Source of the DNA: Candidatus Dojkabacteria bacterium HGW-Dojkabacteria-1
GTDB taxonomy: Bacteria; Patescibacteriota; Dojkabacteria; SC72
Reading direction: 5' to 3'
DNA length: 64,000 nt
Assembly (NCBI GenBank): GCA_002840365.1
Contig: PHAO01000001.1
Location: 524,360-588,359 of the forward strand
Positions 1 through 6,451 of this stretch are shown one piece after another. Below the pieces are notes generated by a model. That model had not been told where the DNA came from. It ran no database searches and worked only from the letters and a program-made list of their open reading frames with translations. The position numbers were made by a program, and so were the translations under genes. The first letter of the stretch is position 1. The number at the start of each line of letters is the position of its first letter.

Positions 1-592
1 CTTCACATCTACAGTATGGGATTCAAATCAAACCTCTATATCTGCTATCTCAAATGGTGCAAGGTCACCTGATATCTCATATGGAGGAACACCTCTTGCT
101 CTTGATGGTACTTTGTATTACTGGAGAATTAAATTTTGGGATCAAGCAGGTACAGAAAGTTCTTGGTCGTCAACGGCAACCTTTAGAATGTCTGCAAACC
201 CATATGCACCAATAGAGTTGAAAGTAGATGGTAGAACAAATCCACCATTAATAGACAGTGCAAGACCAACCTTTTACGCTACACATAGAGATGCAAACGA
301 AGACAATGCAATATTTGTTGAGATAAATGTAAACAGTAATGCTTCCTTCACAGGAACAATCAAATGGAATACAGGAAAAGTTAGCATAGACCCAGTAGTA
401 CATGGAGCAGAATATACTGTTACATATGGTGGAACACAACTCTTAGGAGACAGTACAACATATTACTGGAGGATAAGGTTCTGGGATGTAGATGACAATG
501 TAAGTCCATGGTCTGCAACTGCTTCCTTTGTAGATTTATTCAAATATACAAGAATGAATGGTATAGGTATGGATGGATTGCAAATAAACTAG
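1..592 (+). CDS. C-terminal fragment of a large repeat-containing surface protein with fibronectin-III-like modules. The gene continues upstream of the window.
   Basis: The frame is open from position 2 to the stop at 592. The repeated modules are '...YYWRIKFWD', 'KWNTGKVSIDP' and 'YYWRIRFWDVDDNVSPW'. The tracker's Met at 113 is a TTG inside the open frame. Confidence 0.5.
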   Translation, partial: FTSTVWDSNQTSISAISNGARSPDISYGGTPLALDGTLYYWRIKFWDQAGTESSWSSTATFRMSANPYAPIELKVDGRTNPPLIDSARPTFYATHRDANEDNAIFVEINVNSNASFTGTIKWNTGKVSIDPVVHGAEYTVTYGGTQLLGDSTTYYWRIRFWDVDDNVSPWSATASFVDLFKYTRMNGIGMDGLQIN

Positions 593-4037: not shown

Positions 4038-4376
4038 ATGAGAGTCAAAGGTGGAACAGTAAGAAAAAGAAGACATAACAAGATTTTAGCCTTTACAAAA
4101 GGATATAGAATGACCAAGAGCAAGCTGTATAAGGTTGCTCACGAAGCATACATGCATGCTGGACAGTATTCATACAACGATAGAAGAAAGAGATCTGGAC
4201 AAATGAGAAATCTATGGATTCAGAAGATAAATGCAGCATGTAAGAACAATGAAATTCAATACAAGGATTTAATTGGAGGATTGAAGAAAAAGAATATTGA
4301 ATTAGATAGAAAAGTATTAGCTGATATCGCAGTAAATGACCCTCAGGTATTTTCCTTTATAGTGAAATCTCTCTAA
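4038..4376 (+). CDS. rplT: 50S ribosomal protein L20
   Basis: The matching segments are 'RVKGGTVRKRRHNKILAFTKGY', 'AGQYSYNDRRKRSGQMRNLWIQKINAA' and 'LADIAVNDPQVF'. The alignment runs end to end with L20. Confidence 0.9.
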   Translation: MRVKGGTVRKRRHNKILAFTKGYRMTKSKLYKVAHEAYMHAGQYSYNDRRKRSGQMRNLWIQKINAACKNNEIQYKDLIGGLKKKNIELDRKVLADIAVNDPQVFSFIVKSL

Positions 4377-5236
4377 GACTTCCTTCTAATCTTAAAGACT
4401 TCAGGAAGAAGACCTCCTTCGTTAACACAAAGAACACTTTCAATTTTCCAATTTTTGAATACTTTTCGTAACAAAGTTTTTTCCTGTGTTAAAAGAACAA
4501 GTACTCCTCTCTTACGAAGTAATTTCTCCGCAACTTTTTCTAATTCATAATATATTTTCTCATTTTTATCATGACTACCCACCCTTATACCAAAGGGCAA
4601 GTTACTAACAATTTTATCTATATTCCTTTTATTCAATTTTAATTCTGAGATGTCACTTTTAAATAATTTGTAACGCCTTGTGGGGATTCCGGCCTTTTGG
4701 AAATTAGACAAACTAGAATCTATTGCCTTTCCACTGATATCCGATGAAATAGATTTCTTTATATTGAAATATTTTATGCCCGTAATTGGTATAGTCGAAG
4801 ATCCACAGAATGGATCTAAAAGAATATCCTCGCTTTTTAAATCTGCAATCATACATAGTATATAAGCTAATGAAGGATTAATTCCTGCAGATACGAAATC
4901 CTTTCTCCAAGGTCTCCTTGAAAGATTTAAAATTCTCCCACTTGAATCCTCTATGTGGGTAGGAGACAGAAGATTTCTAAAAATCTCAATATTATTATCT
5001 TTATATTGAAATATCAGACTACCTTCTGAAACTTTTACAACTTTAGATTCAGGGTACTTACTCATCAAATCCCTTAGGACATAATCTTTAGTACCTGGCA
5101 AAAATTTAAGCGTATACATTGATAAATACATACTAGGATAGTATACTACATGAAAGATGCAAATACCAAAAGGTATAATTGTTAGACAACTTGACAAATA
5201 TGCCCATCTACTCAATCCGTATACTGGAGATATCAT
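4373..5236 (-). CDS. Class I SAM-dependent RNA methyltransferase, probably N2-guanine, of the UPF0020/Trm14/RlmL type with a short N-terminal domain
   Basis: Motif I is 'LLDPFCGSSTIPI' (DPxCGSGT-like) and motif IV is 'SNLPFG' (NPPY-like). The true start is probably the internal Met in 'MYTLKFL' near 5119, which would remove the divergent overlap with the rSAM gene. Confidence 0.55.
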   Translation of the reverse strand: MISPVYGLSRWAYLSSCLTIIPFGICIFHVVYYPSMYLSMYTLKFLPGTKDYVLRDLMSKYPESKVVKVSEGSLIFQYKDNNIEIFRNLLSPTHIEDSSGRILNLSRRPWRKDFVSAGINPSLAYILCMIADLKSEDILLDPFCGSSTIPITGIKYFNIKKSISSDISGKAIDSSLSNFQKAGIPTRRYKLFKSDISELKLNKRNIDKIVSNLPFGIRVGSHDKNEKIYYELEKVAEKLLRKRGVLVLLTQEKTLLRKVFKNWKIESVLCVNEGGLLPEVFKIRRKS

Positions 5237-6371
5237 TTCTCTTCACAAGTCAGATTTCAAATCTTTAGAGAATGTAAAGGAAAAGGAGATTGATTCGGAA
5301 ATTATACAAGCACTACATTTACCAAGAGATAAAAAAATCTGCTCAAGAAACTTCCGAGCTAAACTCGTTGATCTAGGCGCATCCTACAGATTCCCTACTA
5401 TTGTCAACATAGAAATTACAAGAAGATGTCTACTTGATTGTAAGCACTGCTATATTTCTTCTCAGGAACATACTTCAATAGAGATTAAAGGTGTTGAAAA
5501 TATGACACGAAAAGAAGTAGACAAACTTATGCGAGATTTACATAGGATGGGAGTATTTCTCGTAGTCTTAACAGGAGGGGAACCAATGATTTCCAGAAAT
5601 TTCTCTTATTTCCTTGAAGCAAGTAAAAAGTACAACATGATTGTAGAAATTTTTTCTTGTTTACAAATTTTACCAAAGTCTGTAATCACACAGGAAGAAA
5701 ATAATATTGGAAGATTTCAGGTCTCTATATATTCACTAAAAGGTAGCATACATGATTCCATAACAAATCGAAGAGGGTCTTTGGAAAATTCATTAAAAAA
5801 TATAAAGGTATTAAAAGAAAAGGGATTTTACATTGAAATTGCAACTCCACTAATGAATATAAATTACAAAGAAAGAAATAATATTAAAAAATACTTCAAG
5901 AAGATTGGTATTGCACAAGATTTTTCTTGGCCGATTTTCAATGAATACTATACGGAAAGAACAAACAAATCGGAATTAAATATTGCAAACAAAGAATTTC
6001 TACAATTCGTAAAAGAAAATCCTTCTTTTTTGTTCAAATGTTCATACACTAATCCAGAAAATTCTCCATGCGTAGCAGGAAATTCTGTTTTTTCTATTGC
6101 TGCAGACGGAAGTGTCTTCCCGTGTAGTCAATTTCCCATGCAAATAGGGAATATCTTTACAAAGGGGGAAAATATAAAAGAGATATATGATGGACCAAAT
6201 ATGGATAAAGTAAGGCGATACAGGGTAAAAGATATTAAGGAGAACACAGATATATATAACTTCTGTATGGGAAACAATTTTTCTGAAACAGGGGATCCCT
6301 TAAAACAACCTTTATTTATAAAGGATTCTATAAATTATTGTCTGAAAAATCTCAAAAGAAAGGAGGTATAA
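5157..6371 (+). CDS. Radical SAM protein with a C-terminal SPASM/twitch-like Cys-rich extension and an N-terminal extension of about 85 aa that could be an RRE. It is a putative peptide-modifying maturase.
   Basis: The CX3CX2C motif is 'RRCLLDCKHCY'. The glycine-rich SAM motif is 'VVLTGGEPM'. The C-terminal Cys cluster is 'KCSYTNPENSPCVAGNS..DGSVFPCSQFP..NFCMGN'. Confidence 0.7.
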   Translation: MQIPKGIIVRQLDKYAHLLNPYTGDIISLHKSDFKSLENVKEKEIDSEIIQALHLPRDKKICSRNFRAKLVDLGASYRFPTIVNIEITRRCLLDCKHCYISSQEHTSIEIKGVENMTRKEVDKLMRDLHRMGVFLVVLTGGEPMISRNFSYFLEASKKYNMIVEIFSCLQILPKSVITQEENNIGRFQVSIYSLKGSIHDSITNRRGSLENSLKNIKVLKEKGFYIEIATPLMNINYKERNNIKKYFKKIGIAQDFSWPIFNEYYTERTNKSELNIANKEFLQFVKENPSFLFKCSYTNPENSPCVAGNSVFSIAADGSVFPCSQFPMQIGNIFTKGENIKEIYDGPNMDKVRRYRVKDIKENTDIYNFCMGNNFSETGDPLKQPLFIKDSINYCLKNLKRKEV

Positions 6372-6373
6372 GT

Positions 6374-6451
6374 ATGATAAAAGCTGTACAAAAGAAATCT
6401 ACACAAGTCTATAATTGCACAAAATGTGCTTCAAGAAGTTCGCAGCACTAA
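6374..6451 (+). CDS. Candidate 25-aa Cys-containing precursor peptide (MIKAVQKKSTQVYNCTKCASRSSQH), hypothetical
   Basis: The ATG is 2 nt after the rSAM stop. AGGAGG lies at 6361-6366, which is 7 nt upstream of the ATG. The peptide has two Cys in a C-x-K-C arrangement. It falls below the ORF-track size cutoff. Confidence 0.3.
   Translation: MIKAVQKKSTQVYNCTKCASRSSQH

Follow-up and report, generated by a model that had tools for sequence, protein, structure and literature searches.

Relation to described peptide-modifying enzymes

Amongst the structurally characterised maturases of peptides that are made on the ribosome and modified after translation (RiPPs), the radical S-adenosylmethionine (rSAM) enzymes SuiB, SkfB and CteB carry an N-terminal recognition domain, and it is with these enzymes that a gene pair found in the candidate phyla radiation (CPR) is compared here. 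The pair lies in a stretch of 64,000 nucleotides (nt) of the genome of Candidatus (Ca.) Dojkabacteria bacterium HGW-Dojkabacteria-1 (contig PHAO01000001.1, positions 524,360 to 588,359 of the forward strand; hereafter the window). It consists of a gene for an rSAM protein of 404 amino acids (aa), identical to GenBank PKN02927.1 and labelled there as 'hypothetical protein', and of a 25-codon micro-open reading frame (micro-ORF) downstream of it. The original prediction, made from the letters of the DNA alone, had taken the two as a candidate RiPP pair, and the proposal is supported by a short ORF that is co-conserved next to the enzyme gene and can be divided into a putative recognition part and a core. 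With a probability of roughly 70%, the two genes form a cassette for a ribosomally made, rSAM-modified peptide, and together they look like a family of peptide natural products, modified by an enzyme, that has not been described before.

SkfB, which acts on the sporulation killing factor SkfA (6EFN), is an enzyme of about 400 aa in three modules, namely an N-terminal beta3-alpha3 peptide-binding domain, an rSAM core with the CX3CX2C motif, and a twitch domain, in which three visible Cys ligands hold a single auxiliary iron-sulphur (Fe-S) cluster and leave one site open (PMC6231123). Its short Cys-containing substrate is encoded in the adjacent gene, and in all these points the pair described here is predicted to be similar. 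In CteB, the open site of auxiliary cluster I is occupied by a Cys of the substrate (PMC6231123), and such binding has been proposed for SkfB as well. However, the window protein is only about 16% identical to SkfB and reaches 52 bits in the SkfB model TIGR04403, whose cut-off is 300; its auxiliary Cys are spaced CX17C...C as opposed to CX33CXC, and the precursor motifs are unrelated. SkfA, moreover, has 55 aa and is encoded upstream of skfB, and dedicated genes, none of which is present here, provide for its cleavage, cyclisation and export. Two further curated sactisynthase models are also far below their cut-offs (AlbA with 71 of 850 bits and StsB with 51 of 625 bits).

An RRE-rSAM-auxiliary-cluster layout (RRE, RiPP recognition element) in combination with short Cys-rich substrates, similar to what is predicted for the pair, is found in CteB (fold match with E 1e-12), AlbA, StsB and PapB, all of which differ from the window protein in having a full seven-Cys SPASM domain with two auxiliary clusters. 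SCIFF peptides such as thermocellin contain six Cys in about 45 residues, whereas the peptides described below contain two in 24 to 35 residues. By maturase model and precursor motif, the pair also falls outside the ranthipeptides as represented by PapB and SCIFF: the enzyme reaches 44 of 340 bits with the PapB model NF047865, and the peptide, instead of a CX3D-type or six-Cys motif, has two Cys and lacks an Asp/Glu acceptor motif. SuiB, the maturase of streptide, is the top Foldseek match over the full length of the protein including the N-terminal domain (E 1e-14), but it forms a Lys-Trp C-C crosslink, has a full SPASM domain and is 15% identical. PqqE/PqqA and MftC/MftA resemble the pair in their very short precursor with the core at or near the C-terminus, in the rSAM-SPASM enzyme and in the lack of an exporter. 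They differ in having a separate RRE protein (PqqD or MftB) and conserved further enzymes, the MftC model gives 47 of 265 bits, and the terminal residue of the peptide is variable here in comparison to PqqA and MftA. By analogy, the system would work like SkfB/SkfA and CteB/SCIFF but is a member of neither, since all curated models fail by a wide margin, the full SPASM pattern is not matched and the precursor motif is new.

Conservation and coding nature of the micro-ORF

The rSAM gene of the window ends with the TAA at 6369-6371, and the ATG of the micro-ORF follows 2 nt later, at 6374 (Table 1). The hexamer AGGAGG at 6361-6366, within the final rSAM codons, precedes this ATG by 7 nt. Coordinates, translations, the CLLDCKHC motif, the gap and the spacing were all found to be as originally described. 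That AGGAGG should be the strongest Shine-Dalgarno (SD) sequence in the window is a different matter. The SD sequence is real by ortholog comparison, but with 25 occurrences of the hexamer in the window against 23.2 expected its frequency is at chance level, and it was therefore dropped as evidence per se; AAGGAGGT occurs seven times against 2.4 expected. Short ORFs, too, are abundant in this AT-rich DNA; the first 14 kb of the window hold 176 that are 20 aa or longer. Judged on the window alone, the combination of ORF and AGGAGG is not beyond chance; both become significant because relatives share them and not because of window statistics.

A protein search yielded 55 homologs with 38-70% identity, all of about 400 aa, whose contigs were fetched and complemented by 38 further metagenome loci. 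In every ortholog locus that retains the DNA downstream of the rSAM gene (about 50 loci), the micro-ORF is present at the same place, so that the co-occurrence proposed as a check in the original prediction holds without exception. Its start is preceded by (A)AAGGAGG(T) in most loci and by degenerate versions in a few, and in about a dozen distinct loci the stop of the rSAM gene and the start of the peptide gene overlap as ATGA. The 36 distinct peptides have 24-35 aa and a median net charge of +7, and all but one of them contain exactly two Cys. All C-termini read C-x-x-C-[AS]-[ST]-R-S-S-x-[HYK]-stop, with the end always seven residues past the second Cys, and the N-terminal part is basic and has a conserved [PA]-[IV]-[WK]-[KR]-[ST]-type motif. 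A search with the core motif gave one match per ortholog locus, none elsewhere and none in two unrelated rSAM loci.

The 11-codon core is present in 34 versions that differ in their DNA; in these, Cys1, Cys4 and Arg7 are invariant, the Arg being written with six codons and Ser9 with both TCN and AGC codons. The positional entropies of 0.80, 0.43 and 1.55 for codon positions 1, 2 and 3, respectively, place most of the variation at the third position. By this pattern of substitutions, the comparison of orthologs shows purifying selection on the peptide at the protein level, which is the signature of a translated gene and not of an RNA element. An ORF that is open by chance, or a terminator or other RNA that is conserved without coding for a protein and happens to be open, would be in line with the chance-level ORF and SD sequence of the window when taken by itself. 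It is effectively refuted, and its probability negligible, as the DNA versions keep frame, start, stop and motif while leaving third positions free, and an Rfam scan of the window gave one tRNA only and no family at the cassette. The same comparison shows that divergent CPR bacteria have inherited the genes for enzyme and peptide together, as a pair linked in translation. Since a terminator-like hairpin with a T-run directly follows the peptide gene, at most about 50 nt past its stop in 29 of 37 distinct loci, the unit would be a bicistronic rSAM-peptide operon; no terminator was found after the window's own peptide gene.

Two further observations concern the layout of the pair. The SD sequence of the peptide gene lies inside the rSAM coding sequence, which is therefore under a dual constraint for coding and for ribosome binding, and it is translated into a conserved C-terminal tail of the enzyme, 'KKGG' or 'RKEV' (6358-6371 in the window and the equivalent positions elsewhere). 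Upstream of the rSAM start, a promoter-like TTGATA-17-TATACT is found at 5119-5147 (+). In a single metagenome contig (Ga0210018_1020287; locus L048, 608-1258), the rSAM protein continues in frame into the peptide at its C-terminus (...TKRKEVKMKKLGKKSIKTVWSS...CMGCPSRSSSK, followed by the stop). The closest relatives of this locus (L043, L045 and L046) have one extra A after GGAGGT and separate genes with ATGA overlap, and the fusion keeps both the SD sequence and the ATG; it could be genuine or a homopolymer sequencing error.

Core and auxiliary domain of the enzyme

With Pfam, the enzyme matches Radical_SAM (PF04055) over aa 85-243 with 64.4 bits (cut-off 29.5) and SPASM (PF13186) with 31.4 bits (cut-off 21.5) over aa 305-358 only. 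The comparison with hidden Markov models (HMMs) of rSAM-SPASM proteins, which the original prediction had suggested as a check, thus places the protein above the cut-off of both Pfam models, but the SPASM match is partial and the curated NCBIfam models remain below cut-off. Of these, 71 families were matched, all far below their curated thresholds, the best one being TIGR04053 with 89.5 bits against 395, and the others including ACGX, WgkB (74 bits), AlbA, AhbD, NirJ, MoaA and MftC. Neither of the two genes is claimed by a Pfam or NCBIfam family of its own.

In the alignment of 41 family members (A1), the invariant Cys are C91, C95 and C98, which make up the CX3CX2C motif and confirm that it is canonical, together with C305, C323 and C370; two others of the window protein, C294 and C384, lack conservation in the family. 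The core of the AlphaFold2 (AF2) model superposes on the partial TIM-barrel core of rSAM structures, in agreement with membership in the rSAM superfamily. The seven-Cys pattern of full SPASM domains with two auxiliary clusters (CX9-15GX4C...CX2CX5CX3C...C; PF13186/TIGR04085) is not matched, the CX2CX5CX3C block being absent from the alignment. Twitch domains, as in BtrN, MoaA and SkfB, comprise the first half of a SPASM domain, with a Cys on either side of a beta-hairpin, and one or two additional ligands for a single cluster. The hairpin C305-x17-C323 in conjunction with C370, as in twitch domains, is present at the sequence as well as at the model level. Since there are only three invariant auxiliary Cys and no CX2CX5CX3C block, the auxiliary domain is classed here as twitch-like; it could hold one cluster with at most three Cys ligands. 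The Cys cluster near the C-terminus that had been attributed to the SPASM/twitch type is accordingly of the twitch-like kind and not a full SPASM.

A profile search against the sequences of the PDB gave the twitch sactisynthase SkfB as the top match (E 5e-16), covering profile positions 79-354 including the Cys-hairpin-Cys element, while the twitch domain of BtrN matched positions 301-371. The AF2 model of the enzyme has a mean predicted local distance difference test (pLDDT) score of 89.8 and a predicted template modelling (pTM) score of 0.90. Foldseek searches with this model returned SuiB, SkfB and CteB first, in near full-length alignments, followed by MoaA, BlsE, TigE, the anaerobic sulphatase-maturating enzyme (anSME) and viperin. 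That the enzyme might cluster with anSME or QueE-like proteins, which had been named as a possible refutation of the pair, is therefore at odds with both the sequence ranking, which is led by SkfB, and the fold ranking, in which the three RiPP maturases are above MoaA and anSME. An assignment to anSME is further opposed by the absence of a full SPASM domain, by the anSME motif C-x-[PA]-x-R, which is not matched because the Arg of C-[AS]-[ST]-R is at +3 and not at +4, and by the lack of a sulphatase gene near the rSAM gene in the window.

An enzyme without CX2CX5CX3C next to a peptide with an invariant CX2C, expressed at about 1:1 as implied by translational coupling and fused in frame at one locus (L048), could also be read as a holoenzyme, in which the product of the micro-ORF is no substrate but a small subunit that provides, in trans and through its CxxC, the Fe-S ligands missing from the truncated SPASM domain. 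This is very improbable, as twitch enzymes work with one auxiliary cluster and no peptide is needed to obtain a complete and confident AF2 model. Such a subunit would, in addition, leave the [ST]-R-S-S-x-H tail and the N-terminal motif of the peptide without a role and the RRE-like domain unexplained, the L048 fusion is one base off its relatives in an A-run and retains SD and ATG, and we know of no precedent.

N-terminal domain and proposed recognition of the peptide

The N-terminal extension, which precedes the rSAM core at the place where RiPP maturases carry their RRE, had been suspected to be such an element; it resembles one by predicted fold, with marginal scores, but is not detected with PqqD/RRE models. 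None of 25 N-terminal domains of the family matches PF05402 (PqqD/RRE) at E<=10, a PDB profile search with the domain gave chance matches only and no RRE, and an hhalign comparison to the N-terminal part of the distant homolog P0056, for which a PF05402 match had been precomputed, was negative. A separate AF2 model of the domain (pLDDT 89), however, has three strands followed by three helices, which is the topology that defines RREs (a winged-helix fold), and Foldseek gives TbiB1 for all of its first five matches (E 0.04, probability 0.89) and CteB thereafter. RRE structures are thus the top matches by two methods, albeit at marginal scores, and the domain is tentatively called RRE-like, by its predicted fold and not by its sequence.

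Because the micro-ORF follows every ortholog with downstream DNA, has a coding signature, is coupled to the enzyme gene by an SD sequence or ATGA overlap and is accompanied by an RRE-like fold, the 25-aa peptide is probably the substrate of the enzyme. Several points nevertheless weigh against a RiPP cassette. The precursor gene comes after that of the enzyme, to which it is coupled in translation; this is unusual for RiPPs and would fit a stoichiometric partner equally well; a leader protease, an exporter or an immunity gene was not found in the window, nor is a protease or an exporter linked to the cassette across the loci. As the curated maturase families all score far below their cut-offs, the chemistry is not transferable by homology, and rSAM enzymes of the same architecture also catalyse C-C crosslinking, epimerisation, decarboxylation and Cys oxidation.

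Proposed chemistry

Within the RiPP reading, a Cys-derived thioether crosslink is put forward tentatively as the most likely chemistry, with chances somewhat short of even. In sactipeptides, such a bond joins the Cys sulphur to an alpha-carbon, and in ranthipeptides to a beta- or gamma-carbon; the comparison of the core to these two types in the original prediction is a sensible guess, and none of the curated families of either type reaches its cut-off. The three-strand, three-helix domain would bind the basic N-terminal part of the peptide, as RREs do, and the cluster on the CX3CX2C motif would cleave SAM to a 5'-deoxyadenosyl radical, which in turn would abstract a hydrogen from a residue of the core. 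A single auxiliary Fe-S cluster on C305, C323 and C370 might bind a Cys thiolate of the substrate at its open iron site, and the radical would be quenched by formation of a C-S bond, resulting in one or two intramolecular thioethers from the invariant Cys to the [ST]-R-S-S tail.

Alternatively, and as the main rival reading, the same enzyme-substrate pair might carry out a reaction other than thioether formation, i.e. a C-C or C-N crosslink at the Arg or at the terminal His/Tyr, an L-to-D epimerisation, an anSME-type Cys oxidation or an MftC-type oxidation of the C-terminus. All these reactions occur in the rSAM-SPASM/twitch superfamily, and there are weak matches to the epimerase YydG/EpeE, to anSME, to MftC (47 bits) and to WgkB (74 bits); the invariant Arg and the fixed distance between core and C-terminus further suggest a role for residues beyond the Cys. 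Such chemistry nonetheless seems rather unlikely given that conservation is strictest at the two Cys, with exactly two in 35 of 36 peptides, that the best sequence match is a sactisynthase, and that a three-Cys auxiliary cluster with an open site suits thiolate binding. MftC-like chemistry in particular is disfavoured by the C-terminal residue, which can be H, Y or K.

Annotation status and distribution

The micro-ORF was expected to be missed by default annotation, and indeed it is called in none of the nine distinct loci with gene tables, and of ten peptides looked up amongst some 15 billion predicted proteins, only one was found. Searches of the peptide against Pfam and NCBIfam gave chance-level matches only (e.g., S14, E 0.03). 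An exhaustive HMM search of 1.84 billion representatives recovered about 15 clusters of the rSAM protein (at 50% identity, fragments counted) with 270-628 bits, and scores fall to 230 bits or less outside the family, resulting in a sharp boundary. Of ten sampled out-group proteins, nine match NCBIfam families and one (P0100) matches none, and no top-scoring family reaches its cut-off; the sole score above a cut-off is that of the double-domain protein P0084 with the mycofactocin model, which ranks below its best match. Those members that have names belong to Dojkabacteria, Wolfebacteria and groundwater assemblies labelled 'uncultured bacterium', so that the family, as far as the sequences collected here go, is small and, where organisms are named, restricted to the CPR. 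No rSAM relatives were found in the viral contigs searched, and a scan of GTDB genomes with the window protein alone returned only L001 and L002, both of which are unrelated rSAM loci. In the literature on CPR/Patescibacteria, no description specific to this family was found; an earlier listing in the supplement of an rSAM-RiPP compendium is possible (PMC10288494). By these comparisons, the family is new, sharply bounded and essentially unannotated, and its precursor motif is new.

The surroundings of the pair in the window are of a housekeeping nature, with thrS, infC, rplT, a divergent methyltransferase gene, and then pheS and pheT. The G + C content of the cassette (31%) equals the local value and fits the flanks, and a recent horizontal transfer was accordingly rejected.

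This setting, in a host with a reduced genome, and the lack of a linked exporter or protease could also suggest that the peptide serves as the precursor or scaffold of a product that is not secreted, be it a cofactor like pyrroloquinoline quinone (PQQ) or mycofactocin or a modified basic mini-protein. In size and in its conserved C-terminal core the peptide is similar to PqqA and MftA, and it is highly basic, like peptides that bind nucleic acids or ribosomes. An intracellular product of this kind is improbable, since the family is rare (the above-mentioned clusters amongst 1.84 billion representatives), unlike what is expected of an essential cofactor, and no further cofactor-processing enzymes are conserved nearby. 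It is also patchy within the Dojkabacteria, as three of three sampled methyltransferase orthologs lack the cassette in their neighbourhood, a count that refers to the neighbourhood only.

Neighbouring genes

Clustering of all ORFs of the ortholog loci revealed three recurrent neighbours (Table 1). The first one is a nucleotidyltransferase (NTase)-like protein of about 155 aa, which is found at 16 loci in two arrangements and is not covered by any Pfam family. A G-S...D-x-D signature is present, the nucleotidyltransferases TM1012, NTP_transf_5, DUF2204 and ANT(2'') are matched weakly, and its family has 47 members in 5.8 billion clusters. As a test of prediction, the contig of a previously unseen member (P0365) was found to contain the NTase-like gene, an rSAM gene whose product is 39% identical to that of the window, and a peptide gene encoding MKKFTPIRKASDKKDTLCPGCASRSSSH. 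Judged by its gene neighbourhood, the NTase-like protein is a dedicated partner in its branches.

The second neighbour, an APH-type kinase (APH, aminoglycoside phosphotransferase) in which H-G-D-x4-N and D-F-D are kept, is encoded directly downstream of the peptide gene at 10 loci (five of them distinct) and separated from it by a strong terminator-like hairpin. Either partner may act on the Ser-rich tail of the peptide, as tailoring or as self-protection; homologs of neither were found in the 64-kb window.

The third neighbour is a UPF0020/Trm14-like methyltransferase (Pfam UPF0020, 102 bits; Trm14 structure 3tlj, E 1e-19), whose gene adjoins the rSAM gene at 10 loci in two orientations. The longest ORF, at 4373-5236 (-), would start with the ATG at 5236, encode 287 aa and overlap the rSAM start. 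Going by orthologs and the deposited 252-aa protein (P0210), the gene starts at 5131, and the divergent intergenic region then measures 25 bp; spacings of 22-25 bp are also found at L004, L006 and L008. The methyltransferase was rejected as a dedicated third component, given that it has more than 200 homologs, of which the 120 listed are 56-68% identical, and that none of three sampled orthologs has an rSAM neighbour. As the named homologs amongst the matches listed are all from Dojkabacteria/WS6, it is probably a common, RNA-modifying Dojkabacteria protein and not a partner of the cassette.

At L016 and L017 (Ga0268284_1002748 and Ga0268280_1001956), the pair is present without any of the three recurrent neighbours despite ample flanks; a coiled-coil protein, of which 658 aa are visible as it enters from the contig end, and proteins of 370 and 565 aa, all of them uncharacterised, are encoded there instead. 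The minimal conserved unit, as delimited by the loci compared, is enzyme plus peptide.

Table 1. Features of the rSAM-peptide pair in the window and of its recurrent neighbours at other loci. Positions with a locus prefix refer to the respective ortholog locus.
Feature	Position	Strand	Basis
rSAM peptide-maturase candidate, 404 aa	5157..6371	+	ORF, Pfam, homologs, AF2, Foldseek
RRE-like N-terminal domain, aa 1-78	5157..5390	+	Predicted three beta-strands then three helices; H17 and N20 invariant
CX3CX2C (C91, C95, C98; CLLDCKHC), putative SAM-binding [4Fe-4S] cluster	5427..5450	+	Sequence; invariant in 41 members
Twitch-like region of the auxiliary cluster, with C305-x17-C323 (hairpin motif G318-x4-C323) and C370	6069..6266	+	Alignment A1, Pfam, SkfB/BtrN alignment
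Shine-Dalgarno sequence AAAGGAGGT in last rSAM codons	6359..6367	+	Sequence; kept in most orthologs
Putative precursor-peptide gene, 25 aa, MIKAVQKKSTQVYNCTKCASRSSQH	6374..6451	+	Conserved position, frame and sequence
Conserved core CTKCASRSSQH, exactly C-terminal	6416..6448	+	34 distinct core DNA sequences
UPF0020/Trm14-like SAM-dependent (RNA) methyltransferase, 252 aa	4373..5131	-	Pfam, Trm14 match; probably outside the system
NTase-like gene, examples	L012:3462-3926, L013:3476-3934, L030:5359-5859(-), L057:4001-4471		Locus clustering
APH-type kinase gene, examples	L010:5531-6466, L011:5353-6309, L034:1585-2517, L043:2866-3792, L048:1346-2272		Locus clustering

A layout of interest for comparison is that of the ATP-grasp loci of 'graspetide branch 2' in CPR genomes, for which SPASM rSAM genes without identified precursors have been described, the precursors perhaps being small proteins that ORF prediction had overlooked (Makarova et al. 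2022, PMC8939145). One locus from Ca. Wolfebacteria (L011, JACRPK010000006.1) is similar in having, at 1-1966 and thus 2-3 kb upstream, genes for an MvdD-type ATP-grasp protein and a Tiki/TraB-like protein (PF04187) near the rSAM-peptide-kinase unit. This is, however, the only one out of about 50 loci with an ATP-grasp gene nearby, and there is none in the window.

At some loci, a second rSAM/SPASM homolog lies a few kb away (L012:114-1433, L030:8072-9190 and L037:1328-2689), and two loci of the NTase type have an M16 peptidase nearby as a possible processing protease (L012:1649-2935(-) and L057:6600-7865). In the window itself, an ORF fragment at 113-592 (+) contains 'YYWRI(K/R)FWD...SxW' twice, about 100 aa apart, and looks like tandem domains of a surface protein that runs in from the left window edge.

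Implications for the biology of CPR bacteria

Phosphotransferases are known to confer self-resistance to peptide antibiotics. By analogy, one may speculate, although this is doubtful as a whole, that the family represents a new RiPP class of minimal, rSAM-crosslinked basic peptides (24-35 aa) in the CPR, which would manage without a dedicated protease or exporter and whose invariant Ser-rich tail would be targeted by the lineage-specific NTase-like or APH-type partners, either for self-immunity or to switch the peptide on and off. Its role would in that case be that of an effector or antibiotic of the episymbiont, possibly directed at nucleic acids or the ribosome, or that of a regulator inside the cell, and the logic of its modification would be new in both cases.

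The pair offers a very small and defined substrate of 25 aa together with a 404-aa enzyme, which is testable in Escherichia coli, and a new precursor motif that can be used in genome mining, and it is an example of a genuine gene that gene callers overlook almost everywhere. An enzyme with a three-Cys twitch domain furthermore bears on the role of auxiliary clusters in thioether formation, and with the NTase-like protein and the kinase there are two uncharacterised partner families whose substrate the peptide may be.

CPR bacteria are not culturable on their own and have genomes of about 1 Mb with little spare capacity. Because genomes this small nevertheless keep the cassette across Dojkabacteria, Wolfebacteria and other lineages, it probably serves their episymbiotic lifestyle.

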